Positions 3,381-62,664 of a stretch of DNA of 64,000 bases are shown piece after piece. Source of the stretch: Candidatus Falkowbacteria bacterium RIFOXYA2_FULL_47_19 (GTDB lineage: Bacteria > Patescibacteriota > Patescibacteriia > Patescibacteriales > UBA12075); NCBI GenBank assembly GCA_001780275.1, contig MFGB01000017.1, positions 59,841 through 123,840 on the forward strand. The letters are read 5' to 3'. The notes under the pieces are model-generated. The model was not told the origin of the DNA. It saw nothing but the letters and a program-made list of their open reading frames with translations, and ran no database searches. The translations under genes were made by a program, and so were the position numbers. The number at the start of each line of letters is the position of its first letter. Position 1 is the stretch's first letter.

Positions 3381-3563
3381 GACGCCTTTGTCATCCTGGG
3401 TGCCCGCAGGGCAACCCGGGATCCAGGAGGGGGTCGCAATATGTTTGTGTTTAATAAAAACGAGACAAGAGCATTTGGTAAGTCTTTTTAATAATTCGAA
3501 TGAACGCCGTCTAACCCTGGATCCCGGGTTCCGCTTCGCGGCCCCAGGATGACAAGGGGCGTC
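3381..3563. repeat. Inverted pair of a 47-nt GC-rich REP-like unit around an 88-bp AT-rich spacer
   Basis: The left unit is 3381-3427 GACGCCTTTGTCATCCTGGGTGCCCGCAGGGCAACCCGGGATCCAGG. The right unit is the reverse complement of 3516-3563, GACGCCCCTTGTCATCCTGGGGCCGCGAAGCGGAACCCGGGATCCAGG. Each unit is itself a hairpin. Confidence 0.85.
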
Positions 3564-3589: not shown

Positions 3590-4072
3590 ATGAAAAAACC
3601 GATCAAAGTATTATTAATCATCCTGGCGGCTGTTTTTTTCGGAGGCGCCGGTTACCTGTTTTATATCCAGTACAAGATCAACCGCGGCGACCTTTTTGAA
3701 TACGAAGGCGTCTGGTATACAAAAGAACAGGCCCGGGAACTCTTTGGACCGCAATACTACGAGGTTGAGTCCAAAAACACACCCGAGGAAGTGTATGTTG
3801 CTTTTCGCGAGGCGTTGTTGCGTAACGATAAAGAGGGTGCGCTTTTATTGATGCGAGAAGATAAAAGAGAGGAGTACAGAAATGCATTTGAAAATAAGGA
3901 AAAGTTTGATAATTGGGTTAAAAGATTTCCGGAAAGTATTATAAAAGACCATGTTTACAGTAATAACGCCTCATATCATTACTTAAACGATGCTGATGCT
4001 AACGATAGAGAGGCACACCCAACTTTGTTTGAAAAAAATAAAATGGGGTATTGGGAGATATACGGGATATAA
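3590..4072 (+). CDS. Hypothetical membrane-anchored protein
   Basis: N-terminal TM KVLLIILAAVFFGGAGYLFYI. No family recognised. Confidence 0.6.
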   Translation: MKKPIKVLLIILAAVFFGGAGYLFYIQYKINRGDLFEYEGVWYTKEQARELFGPQYYEVESKNTPEEVYVAFREALLRNDKEGALLLMREDKREEYRNAFENKEKFDNWVKRFPESIIKDHVYSNNASYHYLNDADANDREAHPTLFEKNKMGYWEIYGI

Positions 4073-4156
4073 AATTTAGATTCAAATAACTCCATCAAAA
4101 ATTGAATATTAAGATTGGAAAATTTTTCCAGGTTTTTTATTTACTTAAAAAATATT

Positions 4157-7100
4157 ATGAAAAAAAGAATTGTTATTTTAATACTGGCGATTTTTTTATT
4201 TCGCGGATTGGCCTTCGGGTATGATAATATGGTGATCCACCCGAAACTGTCCCAGGCGGCTGTCGAAATTTATAACCGGGAAGCCGGGAGAAAGGTAAGC
4301 GCGGAAGAACGGGGATGGATCATCGCGGGCGCGATCGCCGAAGATACTGATCCGCGCTACCTTAACCATTTTTATGACCCGTCGACCGATTCAGGGCTAA
4401 AATATTTAGGCGTCGAGTGGGACTCGGCCCGGGAATGGATCGGGCGGCAAAACAGCGCCACCGGCGATTACAGCGTTAATGCCATTCTGGAAAATTATCG
4501 CCAGGACAACGCCAAGCGCGCCTGGCAGGGGATCGGGCACATTCTTCATCTGTTCCAGGATATGGCCGTGCCGGCGCATACGCGCCTTGATCCGCATCCG
4601 GAGGGCGATCCCTATGAAGGCTGGGCCTGGGGGAATGGTAGTATTAATGCCAATGAAACCAGTAAGATCAATGTAGGCGATTTGTCCGTGGCTATGAAAG
4701 AATTAGCTGCCTACACGAAAGGTAATTTTTTTAGTAAAGAAACTATTAAATTAGAAGACTATACTGTATATCCAATAGAATCGTTAAGCGTTAATGATGT
4801 TGAAAATAAATTTTTAGTGAATGACTTGAATGGTAGTAAATATTATTTAGCAAAAATTGATAATTCTGGTATTTTGCCCGTATATAGTATTGATGATTAT
4901 TATGTCCACCAAGACTACTGGCGTTTATTGGCGCCGAAAGCGGCAGGATATAGCGCCGGGGTGATCGAATGGTTTATTCGCGAGTTTAATAAGATCGACC
5001 AGGAAAAAGCAAAGGAAGAAAAAAGCCTTCTCGGGGCGGTAAAAAAATCTTTCGCCTGGATCGGCGATATTTTTCGGGCGCCGGCGAGCCTGGCCTACGT
5101 TTGGGGCGACGTTTATCGGCCGGCGCGGGAAGAAGTTTTCGAAAAAAGCAAAGAGGCGGTCGAGACGGGAAAAACGGCCGTAGAGGCGGTTAAAAGTTCG
5201 ATCGAGTCGGGGAAAGAAAACGCCCTGGCCGCCATTGACGCCGGATTGGACGCGGCCGAAGACATAAGCGAAGGCATGGCCGAGGGCGTACGGGTGCTCG
5301 GGGAAGCCTTCGAGCCGCCTTCGGCCGCCGCCGGAAACTCGCACAATAAAGAAGGGGGGGGAGACGGACGCGTTTCCGCGGCTTTCGAGGCGAATGATAA
5401 TAAGGTCTTCGGGGATATTACGGAAAATGATGCCGGAGAAATAAGGCTCGCCCGCGTGATCGACGGCGATACGATCGAACTTGAGAACGGGGAAAAGGTG
5501 CGTTATATAGGCGTAGATGCCCCGGAGTTAGGCGCGCCGGGACCCGCAGACGACGAATGTCTGGCTTGGGTTGCGAAAGTTAGGAACGAGCAATTGCTCA
5601 AAGCCGGAAAAATCGAACTTATGGCCGATCCGGGCGGGGAGCGCGATAAGTACGGGAGACTGCTTCGATACGTTTACGCCGGCGATATGTTCATAAACGA
5701 ACGGCTGGCCAAGGAGGGTCTGGCGGAAGCTTATTTCTGCCTGCCCGGCTGGAAAAACTGCCCGTTAGCCGCGGACGAGGCCCGCCGGAAAACGATAGAG
5801 GCAGCGGCGTCCGAAGCGCAATCTAAAAAGCGCGGTATTTTTTCCGGGGTTTGCGATACCGCGCCGGAAAAGATCGAATCGGATAAAGCGCCGGGAGAAG
5901 AAGAAACAGAGGGGGAAATTCCGTTGCCGGGCAAAAAACCGGTAATTCTTTTCGGTTCCGGACCGGCCGCCCCGGTAAATAGCGGCGAAAGCGAAGCAGA
6001 TGATGCGGCCGGGGACGATAGCGGCGACACCGCCGGCGGCGCGGCGGCGCCATCCCCGGACGCGGAAATTTCCGGATCGATCGCGGAGTTTTATCTGTTC
6101 GACCTTCTGACGCACAGCCGGTCTTATACCGCCTCGACCGCGGTCGGCGTTTACGCGGACACGAGCCCGGGATCAATCCCCGGGGAATACCTGCTTGCCG
6201 GCTACGGCGAAACGCCCGATATCTACGGCGAAGGCTGGGTAAGCGCGGTTCCGTTCGTTTACGGGCTCGAGTCGGAAGAAGGCTTTAGGGAGGTGTGTTT
6301 ATGGCTAAAAAACGGGGAGAACCTGGTTTCTTCTTCGACGGCCGCGATCATTCTCGATACTGTCCCGGCCACGCTCGAACTCCTGGCCGCGCCGCCGGTT
6401 TTTTCGAGTTCGACCGAAGCTCTTTTTTTCGCGAGCTCCCCGGAACCGCTCCTGGATCTTTCCTGCCGCCTGGACCCGGGGGCTTCGGCCGCGGCGGATA
6501 TTTCCCTGGATATCGTTTATGACGGCTTGACCGAAGGATGGCATGAGTTTATCTGTGAAGCGGTCGATCTCGCCGGCAACGTATCCGCCTTATCTTACGG
6601 CTGGACGGTCGATCTGACCGCGCCGATAGCCACGATTACGAGCCTGACTATAGACGGCGCGGCAATTATGGCGGCTTGGTCCGGTAGCGACGATCCCTCC
6701 GTTGCCACTAGCGGCATCGCCGCATTTGACCTGGAATTTCGAATCGACGGCGGAGCGTGGCGAGAGTGGCTTACCGGCACGAGCGCCGTTTCGGCCGCTT
6801 TTAGCGCCGCGGAGAGCGGCGAATACGAGGTCCGCGTCCGGGCGCGCGATTCATCCGGCAATACGAGCAAATGGAGCGAGCCGGCGCTAACGACGAAAAC
6901 AGGAGAAATTAAAGCGGACCATATCGTGATAAGCGAAGTCGCCGTAAACGGATATAACAGCCCTGTGCATGAATTCGTGCAGTTATATAATCCGACCGCG
7001 AGCGCCATTGATCTCTCCGGCTGGAAAATACAGTATAAGCCGGCCATTGGCGGCGTTTGGAAGAATAAAACCGGCCCGGACGGACTACCCGCCGCGAATA

Positions 7101-8511: not shown

Positions 8512-8636
8512 AAGATACAAGGATACAAGATACAATAACCAAATAAATTTCAAATTCCAATAATCAATAATCAAGCAGTTTGATGTTTTTGATTTGGCGC
8601 TTGTGGTTTGTTTGTGTCCTTGTATCTTGTGTCCTT
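8512..8636. repeat. Long word-repeat hairpin with a conserved core (family A)
   Basis: Arms are AAGATACAAGGATACAAGATACAA and TTGTGTCCTTGTATCTTGTGTCCTT. Core is AAATAAATTTCAAATTCCAATAATCAATAATCAAGCAGTTTGAT. Confidence 0.85.
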
Positions 8637-8647
8637 GGGAGTTGTTT

Positions 8648-12497: not shown

Positions 12498-12595
12498 ACC
12501 CGCAAATTTACAAATCTGTTACAAATCTACAAATTACAAATAATCTTGTTCTGTCGCTATTTGTAAATTTGTAAAGGATTTGTAAATTCGTGGGT
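12498..12595. repeat. Word-repeat hairpin (TTTACAAAT words)
   Basis: ACCCGCAAATTTACAAATC… pairs with …GATTTGTAAATTCGTGGGT. Confidence 0.85.
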
Positions 12596-12622: not shown

Positions 12623-13177
12623 ATGAACCAATTCATAGAATCCAAAAAGGAGGAATTCAATAAAGCCGTCGATTTTTTTAAAAAGGAAATTTCCAGCCTG
12701 CGGACGGGACGGGCGAATCCGAATATGCTGGAAGGCGTGACGGTGGACGCTTATGGGGCGAAAACGCCGTTAAACGGCGTGGCGTCGATAAGCGTTCCGG
12801 ACGGACAGAGCATAATTATCGCCCCCTGGGACAAGGGCATACTTAAAGAGATCGAAAAGGCAATGGTTGAGGCCGATCTGGGAGTAGGGGTCGTGAACGA
12901 GGGCGATAAGATCAGGCTGACCATTCCGATGATGACCGAGGAGAACCGGCGGGATCTCGTAAAAAAACTTAACGAAAAACAGGAAGCCGCCCGGGTCGCC
13001 TTAAGGAAGATCAGAGAGGAAGTAAAGGAAAGCATCGAACGGGCCGAAAAGAACAAGGAGATACCGGAAGACGATAAATTCCGCTACATGAAAGAATTGG
13101 ACGAGCTCATGGCGGGCAAGAACGACGAGATAAAAAGCGTCCGCGACAAGAAAGAAAAAGACATTATGACGATCTGA
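12623..13177 (+). CDS. frr: Ribosome recycling factor
   Basis: Full-length match to the RRF pattern (FKKEISSLRTGRANPNMLEGVTVDAYG...LNEKQEAARVALRKIREE). Confidence 0.95.
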   Translation: MNQFIESKKEEFNKAVDFFKKEISSLRTGRANPNMLEGVTVDAYGAKTPLNGVASISVPDGQSIIIAPWDKGILKEIEKAMVEADLGVGVVNEGDKIRLTIPMMTEENRRDLVKKLNEKQEAARVALRKIREEVKESIERAEKNKEIPEDDKFRYMKELDELMAGKNDEIKSVRDKKEKDIMTI

Positions 13178-13272
13178 GGATTGCCGATTGACGATTTTCG
13201 ATTGTCGATTAAGTTTACTATAAGTTTCTTATGTTGATTTCGATAGATTCGAACATCGACATTCGAAATTTT
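13178..13272. repeat. Word-repeat hairpin (CGATTGCCGATT words, family C)
   Basis: GGATTGCCGATTGACGATTTTCGATTGTCGATT … ATTTCGATAGATTCGAACATCGACATTCGAAATT. Confidence 0.8.
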
Positions 13273-14420: not shown

Positions 14421-14465
14421 GAATTGGAGGTTTTCTCGGCCCAAGGCCGATCCGCCTCGGGCGGA

Positions 14466-14592
14466 GATTGACGATTGCCGATTACGGCGAAATATTGGAT
14501 ATTGAATATTAGATATTATGCTACAGTTATAAATTATTTTTCTAGCTGAATTGGCCGTAAGAAAATAATATCCAATGTCTAATATCCAATAT
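14466..14592. repeat. Composite: a family C word block followed by a family B hairpin
   Basis: GATTGACGATTGCCGATTACGGC, then AATATTGGATATTGAATATTAGATATTATGCTACAG … AATAATATCCAATGTCTAATATCCAATATT. Confidence 0.85.
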
Positions 14593-14669
14593 TAAAACAT
14601 GACGAGCGAGTAAGACAACAACAAGACGGTAAACGTGAATAAATAGTATAAAACATTAAGAATAATAGT

Positions 14670-35358: not shown

Positions 35359-36234
35359 ATGGATAATGCGCAAAATGAAATTAAAAAATATCCCAAAGCC
35401 ATTACCGGCGCGTTCATATTCAATGACAAAGGCGAGTTATTTTTGATGAAATCGCCCAAGTGGCAGGATAAATATGTCTGCCCCGGCGGTACGGTCGAGT
35501 ATAATGAAAAAATAGAAGATAATCTGAGGCGCGAAGTAAGGGAAGAAACCAACATGGAGATCGCGGATATCGGATTTTTAGGAATTTCCGAGGGCGTCAA
35601 TTTAGGCGATAAATATTCCAAGGCCGCCAAACATCTGATATTTTTTAATTATCAGGCGGTCGTCAGCGGACGCCCGGATATTAAACTGAACGACGAAGCG
35701 GTCAAATACCGGTGGTTGAAACCGGCCGAGTGGCTGAAGAAAGATCTGGGCGAATTTACCAAAGAGGTAATAGAAAAATATTTATCAGAAGACCGTGATT
35801 ACGAAGGCAGGTATAAGCGAGCCCTGGCTGATTACCAGAATCTTCTCAAACAGACGGCCAAAGAGCGGGAAGAATTCATCAAATACGCGAACGAACAGGT
35901 CATTTATGATATTATCCCGGTTTACGATAATCTGCGGACATCAATGGAGCATGTCGACGAGGCTACGGCCAAGAACGGCTGGGTCGAAGGCATAAAATAC
36001 GTGATCAGGCAATTCAAGGATATTTTAGGGAAGATGGGCGTGGAGGAAATAGAAGCCACCGGTAAAAAATTCGATTATCATACCATGGAGGCGCTGGAGG
36101 GCAAGGGAGAGAAGGTCGTAAAAACGGTCAAGCCGGGGTATAAGCTGCACGGGAAGGTGATCATACCGGCTAAGGTCGTTTTGGAAAAAGGCGGGGATAG
36201 TGCTACTGGTGACGTAGCGGATAAAAAACAATAA
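35359..36234 (+). CDS. grpE: Fusion protein: N-terminal NUDIX hydrolase domain plus C-terminal GrpE nucleotide exchange factor
   Basis: Nudix box GGTVEYNEKIEDNLRREVREETNMEI (aa about 40-70). GrpE region YKRALADYQNLLKQTAKEREEFIKYANEQVIYDIIPVYDNLRTS…KFDYHTMEALE…GYKLHGKVIIPAKV. It is a single uninterrupted 291-aa frame. Confidence 0.85.
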   Translation: MDNAQNEIKKYPKAITGAFIFNDKGELFLMKSPKWQDKYVCPGGTVEYNEKIEDNLRREVREETNMEIADIGFLGISEGVNLGDKYSKAAKHLIFFNYQAVVSGRPDIKLNDEAVKYRWLKPAEWLKKDLGEFTKEVIEKYLSEDRDYEGRYKRALADYQNLLKQTAKEREEFIKYANEQVIYDIIPVYDNLRTSMEHVDEATAKNGWVEGIKYVIRQFKDILGKMGVEEIEATGKKFDYHTMEALEGKGEKVVKTVKPGYKLHGKVIIPAKVVLEKGGDSATGDVADKKQ

Positions 36235-36341
36235 GATACAAGAAACAAGACACAAGGATACAAACAAATTTCAAATTCCAAAATACCAAACAGTTTGATT
36301 ATCGAATATTGGAAATTGTTTCTTGTATTCTTGTGTCTTGG
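36233..36341. repeat. Family A word-repeat hairpin with the conserved core
   Basis: Arm AAGATACAAGAAACAAGACACAAGGATACAAAC. Core AAATTTCAAATTCCAAAATACCAAACAGTTTGAT. Arm GTTTCTTGTATTCTTGTGTCTTGG. Confidence 0.85.
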
Positions 36342-36849: not shown

Positions 36850-36907
36850 ATATCAATAGGGGGACTTTCCGCCCGAGGCGGATAAGTTATCCCCGGCTTA
36901 GCACATG

Positions 36908-37121
36908 TTTAGGCGTTAGGCCGTTAGGCGGTAGGCTTTAGGAAGTTTTAATAAGCGTGTGGTGGGGCGGGGATGTTCAAATTACGAATTACGAATGTCG
37001 AATTACGAATTAAACCGTAAAATAATTTTTTATAACAAACAATTATCAAACCAAAAATATCGCATCACGTCGTTACTAATTGCCGGGCAGGCGTTATGGG
37101 TTACGCGTTATGCGTTATGCG
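36908..37121. repeat. Three unpaired tandem-word blocks upstream of dnaK
   Basis: TTAGGCGTTAGGCCGTTAGGCGGTAGGCTTTAGG (36908-42). AATTACGAATTACGAATGTCGAATTACGAATT (36980-37011). GCGTTATGGGTTACGCGTTATGCGTTATGCG (37091-37121). Confidence 0.8.
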
Positions 37122-37129
37122 ACAAAGAT

Positions 37130-39046
37130 ATGGGAAAAATATTAGGTATCGATCTGGGTACGACCAATAGCGCCATGGCGATCATGGAAGGCGGCCAGCC
37201 CAAGATCCTGGAGAATGCCGAAGGCAACCGGACCACGCCTTCGATCGTGGCGATCTCTAAAAGCGGCGAGCGCTTAGTCGGCCAGACCGCCAAGCGCCAG
37301 GCCGTGACCAATCCGGAAAATACCGTTTACGCGGTCAAGCGCCTGATCGGCCGCCGGTTTACCGACGACGAAGTGCAACGGGACATAAAGATCTCGCCTT
37401 ATAAGATCGTCCAGGCCGGAGAAGGCGTTAAGGTCAAGATGAACGGTCAGGATTATACTCCGCAGGAGATATCGGCCATGATCCTCTCGAAGCTCAAAGC
37501 GGACGCCGAAGCCAAACTCGGGGAAAAGATCACTGAAGCGATCATTACCGTGCCGGCTTATTTCGACGATTCGCAGCGGCAGGCCACCAAAGACGCCGGC
37601 AAGATCGCCGGACTCGAGGTCAAGCGCATAATCAACGAGCCGACGGCAGCGGCCCTGGCTTACGGTTTTGAAAAGAAAAAGGGCCAGCAGATCGCGGTTT
37701 ACGACTTAGGCGGCGGCACCTTCGATATTTCGATCCTGGACGTTTCCAAGGATACGGTCGAGGTAAAATCGACCAACGGCGACACGCATTTGGGCGGCGA
37801 GGATTTCGATCAAGTGCTCATAAACTGGATCATCGATGAATTCAAAAAAGACCAGGGTATAGACCTGTCTAAAGATACTTTGGCGCTCCAGCGCATCAAG
37901 GAGGCGGCGGAAAAGGCGAAGATCGAATTATCCACCACGAACGAAAGCGAAATCAACCAGCCTTTCATAACGACCGACGCGAACGGACCGAAGCATCTGG
38001 TCATGAAGCTGACCCGGGCCAAGCTCGAAGAGCTGGTGGGCGATCTTGTGGAAAAGACCCTGAAACCCTGCGAGGACGCGCTTCGGGACGCCAAACTCGA
38101 AAAGAAGGATATTGAAGAGGTGATCATGGTCGGCGGGATGACCCGCATGCCCCTGGTCCAGAAAAGAGTCAGGGAGTTTTTCGGCAAAGAACCGAATTTA
38201 AGCGTCAATCCGGACGAAGTCGTAGCCGTCGGCGCGGCCGTCCAGGCCGGCGTTCTCCAGGGCGACGTCAAGGATGTCCTCCTATTAGACGTTACTCCCT
38301 TGACCCTCGGCATAGAAACCTTGGGCGGAGTGGCGACGCCTTTGATCGAACGCAATACCACCATCCCGACCTCGAAATCGCAGATATTTTCGACCGCGGC
38401 CGACAGCCAACCGTCGGTCGAGATCCACGTGCTCCAGGGCGAGCGGCCGATGGCGGCGGACAACAAGACCTTAGGACGCTTTATATTGGATGGGCTTCCG
38501 CCCGCGCCGCGGGGAATACCGCAGATCGAGGTTACTTTCGATATCGACGCTAACGGCATTTTAAACGTCAAGGCTCAGGACAAGGCCTCAGGGAAAGAGC
38601 AGAAGATCACTATCACTTCTTCGTCGGGACTCTCGAAAGAAGAGGTCGAGAAAATGAAGAAAGAGGCCGAAGCGCACGCCGAAGATGATAAAAAGAAAAA
38701 GGAAAAGGTGGAAATAAAGAATCAAGCCGAAACGATCGTTTTCACTACCGAAAAATTGATCAAAGAATCCGGCGAGAAGATGAAGCCGGAAGACAAGAAA
38801 GAATTAGAAACGAAAATTGAAGAGCTTAAAAAAGTTAAAGACACGGATAATACCGATGAGATCAAGAAAAAAATGGAAGAAATGAACCAGGTAGCCCAGA
38901 GGATCGGCACGGCCATGTACCAGGCGGCTCAGGCGGCCGGCGCGCAGGCCGGAGCGGACGGCGCCAAGGCCGGAGAACAGAAAACTGACGATAAAAACGG
39001 CAAGAAAGACGAGCCGATCGAAGGGGAATTCGAGGAAAAGAAATAA
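37130..39046 (+). CDS. dnaK: Molecular chaperone DnaK (Hsp70)
   Basis: [17 protein letters not shown] start, [12 protein letters not shown] and other motifs. The track start at 36959 extends through upstream word-repeats. Confidence 0.98.
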
Positions 39047-39332: not shown

Positions 39333-39635
39333 ATGTCGAATATGTCACAAGTAAACCAACCCAAGAAAACCGAAATCAAAATCGCGGATAATATCCCGGG
39401 AGCGGAATACGCGAACGCGATGCAGGTCAACCATAACCGGGACGAGTTCCAGCTGATGTTTTTAAATATCCTCGGCCCCTCCGGCCGCGTTACCGGCAAA
39501 ATCATCACCGGACCAGGCCATCTCAAGCGCATTGTGGCGGCTCTCCAGGATAATTTAAAGAAATACGAAGAGCGCTTCGGCGTGATCAAGGAAGCTGAAG
39601 GTCCGGAGGAGAAGGAGATCGGGTTTAAGGGCTAA
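39333..39635 (+). CDS. DUF3467 domain-containing protein
   Basis: GAEYANAMQVNHNRDEFQLMFLNI…ITGPGHLKRIVAALQDNLKKYEERFG matches the DUF3467 pattern. An alternative ATG is at 39342. The track GTG at 39309 lies in GC-rich repeat DNA. Confidence 0.8.
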   Translation: MSNMSQVNQPKKTEIKIADNIPGAEYANAMQVNHNRDEFQLMFLNILGPSGRVTGKIITGPGHLKRIVAALQDNLKKYEERFGVIKEAEGPEEKEIGFKG

Positions 39636-39669
39636 GGATTTTCGATTGCCGATTTTCGATTGCCGATTT
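39636..39669. repeat. Left inverted arm flanking the four-helix-bundle gene (family C words)
   Basis: GGATTTTCGATTGCCGATTTTCGATTGCCGATTT. Confidence 0.85.
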
Positions 39670-39676
39670 AAATAAG

Positions 39677-40030
39677 ATGAATAAGGAGGATTTAAAAAAT
39701 AGATTTAAAAAGTTTGCCTTGCGCGTAATTAAATTAACGCGTGCTTTGCCAAGTACTTATGAGTCAAAGGTAATGGGCGGGCAATTATTAAGATGCGGAA
39801 CTTCTTCAGCGGCTAATTATAGAGCGGCCTGCAGGGGTAAATCAAGACCTGATTTTATCTCTAAGTTAGGGATTGTTGAAGAAGAATTGGATGAAAGCAT
39901 GTTTTGGATGGAAATAATTATCGAGTCGGAATTAATAGCCAGACATTTAATCAAAGATTTATATCAAGAAACCGATGAATTATTATCAATAATCATCAAG
40001 TCCAAAATTACTGCCAGAAATAATAAATAA
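39677..40030 (+). CDS. Four-helix-bundle protein (23S rRNA intervening-sequence protein family, PF05635/TIGR02436-like)
   Basis: FALRVIKLTRALP…GGQLLRCGTSSAANYRAACRGKSRPDFISKLGIVEEELDESMFWMEII is the family signature. It is flanked by inverted arms. Confidence 0.88.
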   Translation: MNKEDLKNRFKKFALRVIKLTRALPSTYESKVMGGQLLRCGTSSAANYRAACRGKSRPDFISKLGIVEEELDESMFWMEIIIESELIARHLIKDLYQETDELLSIIIKSKITARNNK

Positions 40031-40062
40031 TTCGACATTCGAAAATCGTAAATCGAAAATCA
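40031..40062. repeat. Right inverted arm flanking the four-helix-bundle gene
   Basis: TTCGACATTCGAAAATCGTAAATCGAAAATC. Its reverse complement GATTTTCGATTTACGATTTTCGAATGTCGAA matches the left arm at roughly 80% by eye. Confidence 0.85.
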
Positions 40063-40066
40063 GAGT

Positions 40067-41134
40067 ATGGGTAAAGATTACTATAAAATTTTAGGCGTAG
40101 ACAAGAGCGCCGGCGCGGACGATATAAAGAAGGCATTCCGCAAAAAAGCGCACGAGTTCCATCCGGATAAAGCCGGCGGGGACGAGGCTAAATTCAAGGA
40201 GGCTAACGAGGCTTATCAGGTGCTTTCCGATCCTAAAAAACGGGCCCAGTACGATCAGTACGGTTCGACGTTCGAGCACGCCCAAAGTCGGGGCGGTTTT
40301 TCCGGTTTCGGCGATTTTAGCAACGGATTCAACGTAGACGCGGAAGATCTGGGCGATATTTTCGGGGGCATCGGCGACATCTTCGGTTTCGGAGGCGGCC
40401 GGCAAGGCCGGCAGAGGGGCGGAAACGATATCCAGACGGTTTTAACGATCGATTTTGCCGAAGCCGTAACCGGGGCGGACAAAGAAATAAGTTTGCGTAA
40501 AAAGGTCAAATGCTCCCATTGCCACGGCAACGCGGCCGAACCCGGCACCAAGATCGAAACCTGCAAGGTCTGCAGCGGTTCGGGCCGGGTAACAAGGGTC
40601 CAGCGGACAATTTTGGGCAATATGCAGGTACAGACGGCCTGTACGGCCTGCGGCGGCGAGGGTAAAACCTACGCGCAGAAATGCCGGCGGTGTTCCGGCA
40701 CCGGTGTTGTTTTCGAAACGGTGAATTTAAGGGTCAGGATTCCGGCCGGGATCGATGATGGCGAGAGCATCCGCCTGTCCGGCGAGGGCGAAGCCGGAGA
40801 AAAAGGGGCCGGGGCCGGCGACTTGTATTTGCGCATCAGAGTGCGTCCGGATAAGCGTTTCGAGCGCGCGGACAGCGATATAAGATCGGGTGCGACCGTA
40901 AGCTTCACGCAGGCGGCTTTAGGGGATAAGATCGACGTGGAAACGGTCGAGGGACCGGTCGAACTTAAAATTCCGGCCGGCACCCAATCCGGTACGGTTT
41001 TTAAATTGCGCGGCAAAGGCATGACCCGTTTGCGCGGCTCCGGCAAGGGCGACCATTACGTGGAAGTGACAGTGGATATTCCGAAGAGCCTTACGAAAAA
41101 GCAGAAAGAGCTGTTAAAAGAGATGGGATTGTAA
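40067..41134 (+). CDS. dnaJ: Molecular chaperone DnaJ (type I)
   Basis: J domain with HPD ([12 protein letters not shown]), a G/F region, and four CxxCxGxG zinc motifs. Confidence 0.96.
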
Positions 41135-46426: not shown

Positions 46427-46446
46427 CATTATTTAGCCATAACAAT

Positions 46447-46572
46447 AAATTCGAAATTCTAAACTCTAAATTCTAAATAAATTTGAAATTCAAATGACCA
46501 AATCAGAAACAATTATTTAGAACATTTGAATTTTGAGCTTCGAATTTGTTTAGGATTTAGGATTTAGTGATT
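46447..46572. repeat. Family A-like word-repeat hairpin
   Basis: AAATTCGAAATTCTAAACTCTAAATTCTAAATAAATTTGAAATTCAAATGACCAAATCAG … GAGCTTCGAATTTGTTTAGGATTTAGGATTTAG. Confidence 0.8.
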
Positions 46573-46580
46573 AGTATTTT

Positions 46581-50807: not shown

Positions 50808-51824
50808 ATGAAATACGATTTCGTGACAGTCGGCGGGGCGACCGAAGACATCACGTTTTATACCAAGGAAGGGGAGATAATCTATAACAAAGAGGACATT
50901 TTAAGACAAAAAATGATCGCTTTTGAATATGGCGCGAAATTGCGCATTGACCGGGCTTATTCTACTTTCGGCGGCGGCGCGGCCAACGCGGCCGTTTGCC
51001 TGGCGAAATTGGGCCTAAAAACCGCGGCTATGGTCGCGGTAGGGGGAGATATCAGGGGAGAGAGCATAAGCCGGAATTTTCAGGTCCATGGCGTCAGCGC
51101 CGGCCTGATCCAGAAAAAAAAGAATATAGAATCCGGTTTTTCCCTGCTTTTAGTCGGCCAATCCAATGAGCACGTGGTTTTTTCCAACCGGGCGGCCAAC
51201 AAACAGTTGTCGGTCGGAACGAGGGAGATAGGCCAGCTTAACGGCGTTAAGTGGGTTTATATGACCTCGCTTTCCGGAAAATGGCGCGATATTCTTAAGA
51301 ATGTTTTTAAAACCAAGGCGAAGATCGCCTGGAATCCGGGCCATATCCAATTGCACGCCGGTTTTAAGGCGATCGGCCCTTATTTAAAGAAAACCAGCAT
51401 GCTTTCCGTAAATAAAGACGAGGCCATAGAATTAGTGGTTACCAATCCCAAGTACCGCAATAAGGACAAAAACTTTTTGAATAACATTAAAAATCTGCTG
51501 GCCGTACTGCAAAGTTATGGAACTGGGATCGTGGTAATCACCAACGGCCGTTTCGGAGCAGACGCTTATGACGGTAAAAAATTCTACCACCAGGACATTA
51601 TTAAAGAGCGGAAGCGGGTGGATACGACCGGCGTCGGCGATGCTTTTGGTTCGACTTTTACGGCCGGCTTGGAAATGTTTTCCGGCGATATCTCCAAGGC
51701 CCTCCTGATCAGCGCGAAAAACACGGCTTCGGTTATCAGCATGCAAGGCGCCCAGAACGGACTTTTGACCAAACGGGGAGTGATGCAGGTATTCCACGCA
51801 ACACGTGGAACGCGTAACGCGTAA
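50808..51824 (+). CDS. PfkB-family carbohydrate kinase (ribokinase-like)
   Basis: GGGAANAAV and DTTGVGDAFGSTFTAG motifs. The last about 10 codons and the stop lie in a hairpin-repeat arm. Confidence 0.85.
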   Translation: MKYDFVTVGGATEDITFYTKEGEIIYNKEDILRQKMIAFEYGAKLRIDRAYSTFGGGAANAAVCLAKLGLKTAAMVAVGGDIRGESISRNFQVHGVSAGLIQKKKNIESGFSLLLVGQSNEHVVFSNRAANKQLSVGTREIGQLNGVKWVYMTSLSGKWRDILKNVFKTKAKIAWNPGHIQLHAGFKAIGPYLKKTSMLSVNKDEAIELVVTNPKYRNKDKNFLNNIKNLLAVLQSYGTGIVVITNGRFGADAYDGKKFYHQDIIKERKRVDTTGVGDAFGSTFTAGLEMFSGDISKALLISAKNTASVISMQGAQNGLLTKRGVMQVFHATRGTRNA

Positions 51825-51978
51825 CGTTTGTTTGGTTGATGGTCCAAGTAAAGTTACAAAAATGTTTGGTTAAAATTGTAAATTTTAATTTTATTAACGA
51901 ATAGAGAATTATAAAATTACGACAAATCGTTATGCGTTACGGGTTATGCGTTATGCGTTTCACGTTATGCGTTACGCG
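51795..51978. repeat. Word-repeat hairpin (CGTAACGCG / CGTTATGCG words) spanning the PfkB-acs gap
   Basis: The left arm CACGCAACACGTGGAACGCGTAACGCGTAACG contains the PfkB stop. The right arm is CGTTATGCGTTACGGGTTATGCGTTATGCGTTTCACGTTATGCGTTACGCG. Confidence 0.8.
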
Positions 51979-55718: not shown

Positions 55719-55756
55719 GGATTTACGATTGCCGATTTACGATTTGCGAATTACGC
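55719..55756. repeat. Family C word block (no partner arm)
   Basis: GGATTTACGATTGCCGATTTACGATTTGCGAATTACGC. Confidence 0.75.
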
Positions 55757-55848
55757 TTTAGATTGGAGGCTTGACGGGTTATGGCGCGCGATCCATGATA
55801 AAGACAGGTTATTTTTTTTTATAGCAGGATTTTACCCAGGAGGAAGAA

Positions 55849-59152: not shown

Positions 59153-60742
59153 ATGAAAAATACAAATGCAAAAAGCCAAAGTTCGAATTTACCCCTAATA
59201 TTGATAATATTGGACGGTTGGGGCTTGGCTAAGCCTAATTTGGGCAATGCCATTACTTTAGCTAAAACCCCTACCATGTCAGGATTGGTCAAAAAATACG
59301 CCAATACGAAATTACATGCCCACGGGAAGTTCGTGGGCCTCCCCTTAAAACAGGTCGGCAACAGCGAAGCCGGCCACATGAATATCGGCGCGGGGCGCCT
59401 GGTTGAGCAGGATGCGGTCCTCATCAGCCGCAGCATCAGCGATGGAACGTTTTTCAAAAATTCGGCTTTTTTGGGGGCTGTGCGACACGTCCATAAAATG
59501 AATTCCAAATTTCATATTATCGGCATGTTGTCCAACGGACAGAGTCCGCATTCTGATCCGGGGCATTTAATAGCGCTTTTGCGCCTGCTTAAGGAAAGGG
59601 GGGTAAAGAATATTTATCTACACTTGATCACTGACGGCCGGGATTCACCTAAATATGTTTCTTTAAGCCTTGTGGATGAATTAGAAAAAAAGCTTGTCAA
59701 TAACGAACGGATAGCGACGATCATGGGCCGGTTTTACGCCATGGACAGGAAAAAGTCATGGGACCGAACCGAAAAGGCCTTCCGCGCGCTCGCGTATGGA
59801 CAGGGCCGCGAGGCCAATACCGCTCAGGAAGCCATTACAGAAGCTTATAACCGGGGCGAAAGCGACGAATACATAGAACCGTACATTGTCGGAAACTCGT
59901 ATGGCGGCAACACAAGAATAGAAGACGGCGACAGCGTGGCCTTTATCAATCTGCGATCCGACAGGAGCCGGCAGTTGACAAAAGCTTTCGTGCAGGACGA
60001 TTTCAATAAAATGAACCCCGGTTCTTTTAAGCGCGGTAAAAAACTTAAGCATTTGTATTTCGTGGCCATGACGGATTTCGGTCCGGACCTGAACGAGATC
60101 CTGACCGCCTACCCTTCGATCGATCTGCACAACACCATACCGATGCAGTTGGCCGACCTAAAACAGCTTTATATAGCCGAAACGGAAAAATACGCCCATA
60201 TCACTTATTTTTTTAACGGGGGTTATGCCGGAACGGTGGCGGGAGAGAAACACATAATGATCCCTTCGCCCGACGTCAGGTCATACGACGAAACTCCGGC
60301 CATGAGCTCGGCGTTGCTGGCCAAGGAGGTTATCAGGCATTTGAAACCGGGATCGGGCAAGAACTGGACGTATGATTTCTGCCTTTTGAATTTTGCCGCT
60401 CCCGACATGATCGGCCATACGGGCAACCTGAAGGCCGGTATCGATTGCTGCGGTGAGGTAGACCGTTTATTGGCCAAGATAGTTAAAGCTTATCTGTCGG
60501 TAAATGGAACGGTTATCATCACGGCCGATCACGGCAATATAGAAAATATGGTCAACCTGAAAACGGGCGAGATCCACACGGAACATACGACCAACCAGGT
60601 GCCTTTTGTTTTGGTCAATAAAAAAATCGGTAATAAAATAAAATTAAGGCAAAACGGCACATTGGGCGATATCGGACCGACCATATTGGAGTTGTTGGGC
60701 AGGAAGAAGCCGAGCGAGATGAGCGGCAAGAGTCTTATTTAG
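59153..60742 (+). CDS. gpmI: 2,3-bisphosphoglycerate-independent phosphoglycerate mutase, copy 1
   Basis: ILDGWG, GNSEAGHMNIGAGR (catalytic Ser), PDMIGHTG and ITADHGN motifs are all intact. Confidence 0.92.
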   Translation: MKNTNAKSQSSNLPLILIILDGWGLAKPNLGNAITLAKTPTMSGLVKKYANTKLHAHGKFVGLPLKQVGNSEAGHMNIGAGRLVEQDAVLISRSISDGTFFKNSAFLGAVRHVHKMNSKFHIIGMLSNGQSPHSDPGHLIALLRLLKERGVKNIYLHLITDGRDSPKYVSLSLVDELEKKLVNNERIATIMGRFYAMDRKKSWDRTEKAFRALAYGQGREANTAQEAITEAYNRGESDEYIEPYIVGNSYGGNTRIEDGDSVAFINLRSDRSRQLTKAFVQDDFNKMNPGSFKRGKKLKHLYFVAMTDFGPDLNEILTAYPSIDLHNTIPMQLADLKQLYIAETEKYAHITYFFNGGYAGTVAGEKHIMIPSPDVRSYDETPAMSSALLAKEVIRHLKPGSGKNWTYDFCLLNFAAPDMIGHTGNLKAGIDCCGEVDRLLAKIVKAYLSVNGTVIITADHGNIENMVNLKTGEIHTEHTTNQVPFVLVNKKIGNKIKLRQNGTLGDIGPTILELLGRKKPSEMSGKSLI

Positions 60743-60813
60743 GCATTAAGGTGTTGGGGCGTTAGGCGTTAGGCGGCCTAAAGCCTAAAACCCTAAAGCC
60801 TAAAACCCTAAAC
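60738..60813. repeat. Word-repeat hairpin (TTAGGCG / GCCTAAA words) between the two gpmI copies
   Basis: …GGGGCGTTAGGCGTTAGGC|GCCTAAAGCCTAAAACCCTAAAGCCTAAAACCCTAAAC. Confidence 0.85.
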
Positions 60814-62433: not shown

Positions 62434-62664
62434 GTTAATATTGGAATGAAAACAGAACACTTCGGCCAAAAAATTTCAAGCACCAAATAACAAATCCCAA
62501 ATAAATTCCAAATTCAAAATAACAAACCTTAAACTTAAATTTTAGTTAATGTTGGATAGTATGGAATATAATGTGTTTTGAATTTGTTATTTAGAATTTA
62601 TTTGTAATTAGGTGCTTGTTATTTGGAATTTTCCAATTTAACAGCTCTGCTTTCATTCCATTAA
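62434..62664. repeat. About 230-nt nested family A-like hairpin
   Basis: Outer arms are TTAATATTGGAATGAAAACAGAAC and ACAGCTCTGCTTTCATTCCATTAA. Inner arms are CAAGCACCAAATAACAAATCCCAAATAAATTCCAAATTCAAAATAACAAACC and GTTTTGAATTTGTTATTTAGAATTTATTTGTAATTAGGTGCTTG. Confidence 0.8.

Follow-up and report, generated by a model that had tools for sequence, protein, structure and literature searches.

The window analyzed here, 64,000 nucleotides of contig MFGB01000017.1 (positions 59,841 to 123,840) from Candidatus Falkowbacteria bacterium RIFOXYA2_FULL_47_19, contains a heat-shock operon in which a gene for a 117-aa four-helix-bundle protein of the PF05635 family lies between DUF3467 and dnaJ. We consider it probable that this gene, together with the inverted runs of about 4.5 tandem heptamers on either side of it, is a horizontally acquired cassette of the intervening-sequence (IVS) type, inserted between DUF3467 and dnaJ. 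The element is filed as IVS-type, and not as an IVS, because it lies outside an rRNA gene. This locus and about 90 comparison loci show that inverted heptamer tracts enclose the genes of this family systematically, far beyond rRNA, and that the enclosed family ranges from bacteria of the candidate phyla radiation (CPR) to Acidobacteriota, Planctomycetota and cultured Nostoc and Planktothrix.

Results

A PF05635 gene is enclosed by inverted heptamer arms in a heat-shock operon

The operon reads hrcA-(Nudix-like)grpE-hsp20-dnaK-DUF3467-[117-aa open reading frame (ORF)]-dnaJ, with everything on the + strand and the 117-aa ORF in the same sense as all the others (Table 1). Profile searches assigned the ORF to PF05635 (23S_rRNA_IVP; E 4.7e-15, 56.1 bits, cut-off 33.8) and TIGR02436 (four helix bundle protein; E 1.8e-22, 79.6 bits, cut-off 24). 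PF05635 was the sole domain detected in the protein, and the nearest solved structure was 2rld, with a full-length sequence match (E 1e-17). The protein matched none of the PHROGs and no PADLOC model, the latter although cyanobacterial copies of the gene sit inside defence operons. Moreover, phmmer on the six-frame translation found no second PF05635-family gene within the window.

A preliminary description of this stretch, made from the letters alone, had held that the ORF is bracketed by imperfect reverse complements able to pair, and both parts of that claim held up. The arms are 34 nt each, 85% complementary and 357 nt apart, and they rank sixth by length among the inverted repeats of the window spaced within 1.5 kb. 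When 39620-40080 was folded, the arms were paired in the minimum free energy (MFE) and centroid structures alike; joined by a GAAA linker, they reached -30.8 kcal/mol, compared with -14.1 +/- 2.6 in 200 shuffles (z -6.4; 0 as good). The 5' arm starts 1 nt past the TAA stop of DUF3467, and the 3' arm overlaps the TAA stop of the 117-aa ORF and ends 5 nt ahead of the dnaJ ATG. Arm, ORF and arm occupy the DUF3467-dnaJ spacer exactly. The arms are period-7 tandem repeats (GATTTTC/GATTGCC), a feature that the preliminary description did not state.

The element is located in this spacer and not inside a 23S or 16S rRNA helix: Rfam returned no family in the whole window (gathering thresholds) or in 39400-40300 (E<=1), and no rRNA either. 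No terminator-like site was seen at the arms. A promoter-like TCGACA-17-GAAAAT (9/12) lies in the 3' arm (40032-40060), 7 nt before the dnaJ start; it is weak and a consensus match only.

Six independent contigs share both the protein, without any difference, and its context; their 541 aligned bases are 100% identical except for a deletion in one of them (L001; comparison loci carry L numbers), whose 5' arm lacks exactly one 14-nt GATTTTCGATTGCC unit. Since this 14-nt indel occurs in otherwise identical strains, heptamer tract length changes by slippage. In another relative (L170, positions 1-100), the upstream arm has grown to ~11 heptamers ((GAATTGC GAATGTC)x5...) and the downstream arm holds ~5, an asymmetry that is consistent with slippage.

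Inverted heptamer arms are found throughout the family

We aligned 30 homologues and collected 80 loci from GTDB species representatives whose proteins are 47-60% identical to the query; 77 were usable. These loci span Acidobacteriota, Planctomycetota, Verrucomicrobiota, Bacteroidota, Chloroflexota, Nitrospirota and others. The inverted match between upstream and downstream flank beat all 100 shuffles in 69/77 loci, and an inverted score of at least 15 was obtained in 61 loci versus 5 in the direct-orientation control. Median arm length is 31 nt, with Watson-Crick pairs at 90% of positions. Tracts adjoining the gene numbered 98 at lag 7 versus 0-5 at other lags. Arm words vary between loci, but within a locus both arms match. 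Nearly all upstream arms belong to the GATTnnn, GAATnnG or AATTnnn type; the GATT core of the arms is conserved across phyla, and the remaining positions vary.

The heptamer tract-gene association is an enrichment over a high background and is not exclusive: a stringent heptamer tract was present in 39/60 gene-adjacent spacers versus 18/55 spacers elsewhere in those loci (odds ratio 3.8, p 7e-4).

Distant members (33-37% identity) on two CPR contigs (L091 and L167) are flanked by AATTnnn arms. Inverted heptamer arms also occur in complete plasmids of the cultured cyanobacteria Gloeocapsa (GATTTTA), Planktothrix (AATCCCC/AATCGTA, with polarity reversed) and Nostoc (GATTGGA in Nostoc flagelliforme; AATTCGC and GGAGGTC in N. 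punctiforme). In keeping with the preliminary description, related genes carry inverted flanks in the GTDB loci, in close CPR relatives and in cultured cyanobacteria.

In cyanobacterial plasmids (L292, L293, L297), family members lie within defence gene clusters. The order is DUF1156-[gene]-Swt1 HEPN in Gloeocapsa and drmD (DISARM)-[gene]-MmeI in Planktothrix, and the gene is co-directional with its neighbours in both. In Anabaena cylindrica, the family gene lies between cas2 and cas1, which run on the opposite strand.

Arms and ORF change genomic context together

The GC content of the ORF, 0.339, falls short of that of the window (0.483) and further still of that of its operon neighbours dnaK, DUF3467 and dnaJ (0.51-0.56). 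In low-GC CPR hosts, homologue and host agree in GC, and the GC of the cassette matches that of such hosts. A DnaJ probe retrieved 80 metagenomic loci, 77 of which were scored for heptamer tracts upstream of dnaJ. In the closest relatives (DnaJ 56-68% identical; L087, L090, L092, L095, L097, L098), DUF3467 is followed by dnaJ without a four-helix-bundle gene. Their empty-site spacers measure 82-137 nt and hold a cargo-less heptamer hairpin, each with its own words (ATGTTTC in L087/L130, AATTATG in L090, CTTAGGG in L092, TTTAGGT in L095/L099, AAATTTT in L097 and GCTTTTA in L098). Just 8 nt separate DUF3467 and dnaJ in two relatives. Of the 77 loci, 9 have a heptamer tract in the 150 nt ahead of dnaJ, and 8 of these 9 are among the closest relatives.

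The same DUF3467-dnaJ site is occupied in L091 by a member only 37% identical and in L167 by a protein 78.6% identical, where DnaJ is only 68% identical. L167 has a second, unrelated member just past dnaJ (4066-4428), which is arm-flanked and 35% identical to the first. The dnaJ of L167 has four-helix-bundle cassettes on both sides, each with its own heptamer arms. Elsewhere, the cassette is upstream of a T2SSE ATPase gene (L170 and L171, proteins 78-79% identical) or directly upstream of tRNA-Leu (L172, protein 68% identical). Arm words of the CGACATTCGAAAATCG type are common to the window, L170, L171 and L172, which represent three genomic contexts. The nonsynonymous divergence (pN) of L167 is 0.08-0.09 from L170/L171 and 0.15 from the window, and therefore context does not follow phylogeny. 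Protein pN is 0.15 against a synonymous divergence (pS) of 0.75, tighter than the pN of 0.20 for DnaJ. Judged by these substitution patterns, the 117-aa protein is functional and under purifying selection.

Taken together, sequence comparison shows arms and ORF to form one unit, recurring across phyla and moving between genomic contexts, and shows the cassette to be horizontally mobile. The mobile or selfish element suggested by the preliminary description gains comparative support from the low GC, the empty orthologous sites and the changes of context.

In L171 (1753-2445), where the upstream sequence is present, the cassette lies directly downstream of rnc, the gene for RNase III, by which rRNA IVSs are excised; the proximity may be a coincidence. 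The rnc and T2SSE genes that would provide a reciprocal empty site are not in the window. In L172 (1-620, a contig from Logan SRR5198903), the cassette lies between a truncated tRNA-like 3' end (GGGTTCAATTCCCGCCATCTCCAC) and tRNA-Leu, and is therefore flanked by stable-RNA genes, as rRNA IVSs are. The tRNA-like 3' end resembles that of tmRNA, smpB is upstream on a longer JGI contig, and another GATTTACGATTTGA tract follows tRNA-Leu.

Period-7 tracts are dispersed through the spacers of the window

The window holds 16 tracts at lag 7 versus 0-6 at any other lag from 4 to 11, and shuffles gave none. All 16 are intergenic; two that seem to be inside dnaK precede the real dnaK start. The dnaK ORF as listed runs from a GTG at 36959 through heptamer tracts, and the conserved DnaK N-terminus begins near 37130. 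A 50-kb control from E. coli K-12 gave zero lag-7 tracts. At one mismatch or fewer, GATTTTCGATT occurs 12 times versus 5.4 expected in the window, a count that no shuffle reached. At two mismatches or fewer, CGATTGCCGATT showed no overall enrichment in the window (16 vs 13.2 expected); its exact and one-mismatch matches cluster at 13178-13210, 14465-14483, 39643-39668 and 55726-55744. The sole strong AATC-type tract of the window lies directly downstream of the 117-aa ORF.

The preliminary description had placed a cargo-less hairpin with the words of the cassette at 13178-13272, and this stood in part. The left arm of this tract is closely similar to that of the cassette, but its partner ATCGACATTCGAAA (13255-13268) is weak, the inverted core is limited to 14 nt (13196-13209 / 13255-13268, 93%), and folding predicts pairing within each arm rather than between the two (z -2.1). 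The word blocks reported at 14466-14488 and 55719-55756 proved real and without an inverted partner. The GATT-type tracts at 13175-13212, 14465-14488 and 55719-55760 are all on the sense strand, and the cassette arm and the tracts at 13175 and 55719 have a common stop-codon spacing (TAAgGATT, TGAgGATT and TAGgGATT). That the intergenic hairpins are empty relatives of the cassette, as had also been proposed, is plausible: empty heptamer hairpins do occur at orthologous sites, but the majority of empties are built from other words, and the hairpin at 13178 is weak.

Table 1. Coordinates of the cassette, its neighbours and other heptamer features of the window
Feature	Position	Strand	Basis
DUF3467 gene, upstream neighbour	39342..39635	+	PF11950, E 3.8e-16; gene calls on identical contigs
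5' arm, GATTTTC GATTGCC GATTTTC GATTGCC GATTTA	39637..39670	+	inverted-repeat search, lag scan, fold
117-aa four-helix-bundle protein gene	39677..40030	+	PF05635 / TIGR02436
3' arm, 85% reverse complement of 5' arm	40028..40061	+	inverted-repeat search, folds
dnaJ, downstream neighbour	40067..41134	+	gene calls
Cargo-less relative, GATT-type tract (GGATTGCCGATTGACGATTTTCGATTGTCGATT), 1 nt after TGA stop	13175..13268	+	words, lag scan, fold
Unpaired GATT-type word block (GATTGACGATTGCCGATT)	14465..14488	+	words; no inverted partner
Separate GATATTG-type heptamer hairpin, directly after the 14465-14488 block	14491..14593		inverted-repeat search
Unpaired GATT-type heptamer tract, 1 nt after TAG stop	55719..55760	+	words, lag scan
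Nested cargo-less heptamer hairpin, GATACAA outer and AAATTTC inner words	8518..8637	.	inverted-repeat search
Cargo-less heptamer hairpin, ACAAATC / GATTTGT words	12498..12595	.	-36.8 kcal/mol, z -8.0
Nested cargo-less heptamer hairpin, grpE-hsp20 spacer	36246..36340	.	inverted-repeat search
Cargo-less heptamer hairpin, AAATTCT / AGGATTT words	46445..46579	.	lag scan
Cargo-less heptamer hairpin, GCGTAAC / GTTATGC words, loop ~95 nt	51802..51966	.	lag scan
Cargo-less heptamer hairpin, GCGTTAG / CCTAAAG words	60738..60812	.	lag scan, fold
Long cargo-less heptamer-type hairpin, 58-nt arms, 71% complementary	62470..62632	.	inverted-repeat search

Discussion

Relation to known systems

In the 23S IVS of Coxiella burnetii, an S23p (PF05635) ORF lies in the loop of a 28-bp terminal inverted-repeat stem in which RNase III cuts were mapped mid-stem; its 5' region holds 2-3 tandem GACAGAT heptamers, depending on the strain, and it is poorer in GC than its host (Warrier et al. 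2016; PMC4990558). With the 23S rRNA IVSs (Coxiella helix-45, Leptospira), the window element shares the PF05635 loop protein, the sense ORF and a terminal stem of ~28-34 bp, and with that of Coxiella also 5'-arm heptamers of strain-variable number, a GC below that of the host and inferred horizontal spread. It has every anatomical feature of the Coxiella IVS except location, which is an rRNA helix in one case and the spacer of a heat-shock operon in the other. Furthermore, the Coxiella ORF is decaying, whereas the window protein is under strong purifying selection, and RNase III cleavage is experimental for the rRNA-borne IVS and would extend to the window element by analogy. A survey also reported 23S_rRNA_IVP ORFs in CPR 16S and 23S rRNA insertions (10.1101/2024.02.27.582315). 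The preliminary description had interpreted the unit as an IVS-type stem-loop cassette in an mRNA operon, and this is supported by the match in anatomy, the pairing of the flanks and the arm-flanked relatives. Each of the three checks by which that description could have failed was carried out, and none contradicted it.

Tandem heptamers have been reported from intergenic DNA as GGGAATC in Xanthomonas and GGGGATT in Nostoc (PMC4692102), as TAACTGA in Beggiatoaceae (PMC4679880) and as five-fold MTYCTGA sites in Geobacter (PMC2700814). Their function has "no clear clue" (10.1101/309039), and their interacting partner is "yet to be identified" (10.1101/2022.06.06.494920). With these repeats, including the short tandemly repeated repetitive (STRR) sequences of cyanobacteria, the heptamers studied here share period 7, 3-6 units, a location in spacers, frequent abutment on start codons and length change by slippage. 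Like STRR-type repeats, the period-7 tracts of the window are confined to spacers and exceed other periods. Moreover, the words GGGGATT of Nostoc and GGGAATC of Xanthomonas are GATTGGG and GATTCCC in another register or on the other strand, that is, of GATTnnn type. The intergenic heptamers were published as direct repeats, and in the reports that could be searched we found no link to inverted pairs around a PF05635 gene.

The arrangement is also reminiscent of repetitive extragenic palindromic (REP) sequences and their REP-associated tyrosine transposases (RAYTs), which belong to the HUH-Y1 transposases and have a conserved REP sequence per genome. As in such REP/RAYT systems and the REP doublets forming hairpins (REPINs), a single gene is flanked by an inverted short repeat that is also dispersed without cargo in spacers. 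In contrast to RAYTs, the window protein is a predicted, non-catalytic four-helix bundle with PF05635 as its only domain and no HUH-Y1 transposase domain, and the words differ between hairpins. The third relevant system is the diversity-generating retroelement (DGR), whose accessory protein Avd, a basic pentamer of four-helix bundles, is a homologue. In the cryo-EM structure of Avd, each of the five protomers touches an RNA stem-loop, and flipped-out bases lie in inter-protomer crevices (10.1101/2023.10.23.563531). The reverse transcriptase and the template and variable repeats (TR/VR) of a DGR were not found at the window locus.

Proposed mechanism and points against it

The cassette would be cotranscribed by read-through from the operon promoter, because the space in it is too small for a separate promoter. 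The arms of the transcript may then form an A/U-rich duplex of ~30 bp. By analogy with the IVSs of Coxiella, Leptospira and Salmonella, we infer that RNase III processes this stem; the cut would free the cassette RNA and part the dnaK-DUF3467 message from the dnaJ message. Since the translation start of each host gene stays intact, such an insertion may be tolerated in an mRNA just as in rRNA. More speculatively, the basic, Avd-like and putatively pentameric protein might bind the heptamer arms, either to regulate its own processing or translation or to favour the persistence or spread of the element, and spread might prefer the loops of existing heptamer hairpins. That three unrelated members share one spacer, the usual content of which is an empty heptamer hairpin, suggests that hairpin loops are preferred landing sites.

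Several observations weigh against this proposal. Neither a transposase nor a target-site duplication nor other insertion machinery was seen in the cassette, its neighbours or the window junctions. Transcription, cleavage and protein-RNA binding are drawn from analogy with the systems above. The mismatches of the sense-strand arms are not enriched in G.U pairs (40 vs 50 of A.C type, p 0.34), and therefore nothing marks the pairing as RNA-selected rather than kept at the DNA level. Arm complementarity could equally come from a DNA-level process, e.g., template switching in quasi-palindromes. The gene is co-oriented with its upstream neighbour in 66/74 cases (89%) and with its downstream neighbour in 52/64 (81%), which is not above the 48/60 (80%) of other adjacent pairs in the same loci. 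One orthologous cassette (L167a) has kept its heptamers, but its arms show little pairing (z -0.5). Among paired arms, the commonest number of full heptamers is 4 (30/61) and not 5; 3 occur in 16/61, and 5-6 units are rare. In addition, 88 (GATTNNN)x5 tracts in IMG/VR viral contigs included none with a family member within 900 nt (0/88), and only 6/88 had an inverted partner; GATT-type tracts therefore exist independently of the gene in cis.

Two ideas were set aside on these grounds. We do not use sense orientation as evidence of co-transcription, because the bias does not exceed the background of adjacent pairs, and one heptamer per protomer of a pentamer is kept as speculation only, since the arm unit count peaks at 4.

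The viral GATTnnn x5 tracts (L173-L252) often end at Shine-Dalgarno-like sequences, e.g., GATTgaggaggt and GATTgagggaag, which suggests a role of direct heptamer tracts in the 5' untranslated regions of phages. One viral contig (L236) holds four such tracts within 8 kb.

Alternative explanations

The arms might be an existing host heptamer hairpin before dnaJ, with a stabilizing, processing or translational role in the mRNA, so that only the ORF landed in its loop. The empty heptamer hairpin that most close relatives show in this spacer, ending a few nucleotides before the dnaJ ATG, speaks for this, as do the commonness of heptamer hairpins in the window spacers, the tracts in 18/55 other spacers of gene-carrying genomes and the presence of three unrelated family members in one spacer. 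However, the arm words travel with the ORF, those of CGACATTCGAAAATCG type through three contexts, and the arms of the subfamily are nearly always GATTnnn or GAATnnG, whereas the orthologous empties use unrelated words such as CTTAGGG, TTTAGGT, GCTTTTA and ATGTTTC. We regard this origin of the arms as unlikely. A similarly low probability attaches to the protein being a domesticated, trans-acting binder of heptamer repeats that has the arms as its own operator and the tracts at 13175, 14465 and 55719 as further targets of a post-transcriptional regulon, an explanation that is compatible with the IVS-type cassette and not exclusive of it. Strong purifying selection fits such a binder, and so do a GATT core conserved across phyla amid variable positions, the sense-strand tracts of the window that start 1 nt past a stop codon, the Avd pentamer that binds an RNA stem-loop through repeated protomer contacts and the want of an identified heptamer-repeat partner in the literature. 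Cargo-less tracts also share exact 7-mers with the gene arms of their own locus in 10/31 cases versus 13% for the arms of other loci. Nevertheless, no viral GATTnnn x5 tract is near the gene, many heptamer hairpins are made of unrelated words, the commonest unit count is 4 and not 5, and co-inheritance of arms and ORF explains the GATT core equally well.

It seems decidedly improbable that the arms are the terminal inverted repeats of a non-autonomous transposon resembling a miniature inverted-repeat transposable element, with the gene as a passenger and RNA pairing as incidental. Inverted termini, patchy distribution, changes of context, pairing without an RNA-specific G.U signature and cargo-less copies with the same words would all agree with it. 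Yet there is no transposase in or near any cassette and no target-site duplication at the window junctions (TAAG/GATT ... AATC/AGAG); the arm sequences differ greatly between copies, unlike transposase-recognized termini, and the rRNA-borne relatives are processed as RNA. Complementarity by chance between unrelated heptamer microsatellites has next to no probability. The frequency of heptamer tracts in the spacers of this genome and the lack of enrichment of the 12-mer word at two mismatches might have favoured it, but it is refuted by the arm fold (z -6.4, 0/200 shuffles as good) and by the recurrence of the layout in 69/77 independent loci, and the only strong AATC-type tract lies immediately past the ORF. 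Despite the homology of PF05635 to Avd, a DGR accessory protein or its remnant is refuted here and has a negligible likelihood: the neighbours are DUF3467 and dnaJ, no TR/VR-like direct repeats occur within +/-7 kb, and no reverse transcriptase is present among the called genes of the six identical contigs.

Significance

Earlier publications cover the protein family, its occurrence in rRNA IVSs, its relation to Avd, the heptamers of the Coxiella IVS and tandem heptamers as the dominant intergenic periodic repeat. What appears to be new is the IVS-type cassette in mRNA operons and the heptamer-arm architecture across the family. For heptamer-flanked PF05635 genes outside rRNA, a literature search of incomplete coverage returned the Coxiella IVS paper only and no paper joining both topics; the novelty of inverted heptamer enclosure outside rRNA is accordingly to be read as "not found" and not as "proven absent".

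The rRNA IVS appears as one special case of a general hairpin-borne cassette, which can sit in operons (heat-shock, defence, CRISPR) without destroying them. The window locus itself is an ordinary member of a very widespread cassette class, and its value lies in the general rule that it exposes. It also ties an orphan protein family to the heptamer-repeat problem in a way that can be tested; the reason for the dominance of period 7 in bacterial intergenic DNA is a puzzle standing for decades. PF05635 pentamers might be the missing binding partners of tandem heptamer repeats, with the arms as their own sites and the cargo-less tracts as trans targets or landing pads, a conjecture to which we give little weight at present. 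If it were true, IVS proteins, STRR-type repeats and heptamer hairpins would form one widespread system, in part selfish and in part regulatory.

Other repeats and genes of the window

The nested hairpins at 8518-8637 and 36246-36340 consist of concentric layers of different words and have the words GATACAAG (outer) and CAAATTTCAAATTCC (inner) in common, which suggests a dispersed sub-family of cargo-less hairpins. The hsp20-dnaK spacer (36850-37130) holds three direct heptamer tracts without an inverted partner, of GCGTTAG type at ~36907-36942, GAATTAC type at 36975-37013 and GCGTTAT type at 37089-37125. Another inverted-repeat family is represented at 3385-3558 (TTTGTCATCCTGGGTGCCCGC...GGATGACAAGG; 43-nt arms, 84% complementary). 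In L088 (2365-2500), the spacer between DUF3467 and dnaJ is taken up by a related hairpin (TTTTGTCATTCTGAGGAGC...CAGAATGACA), whereas other relatives have a heptamer hairpin there. Finally, the grpE ORF (35359-36234) has an apparent N-terminal Nudix-like module (GGTVEYNEKIEDNLRREVREETN), judged by eye, that is fused to the GrpE part.

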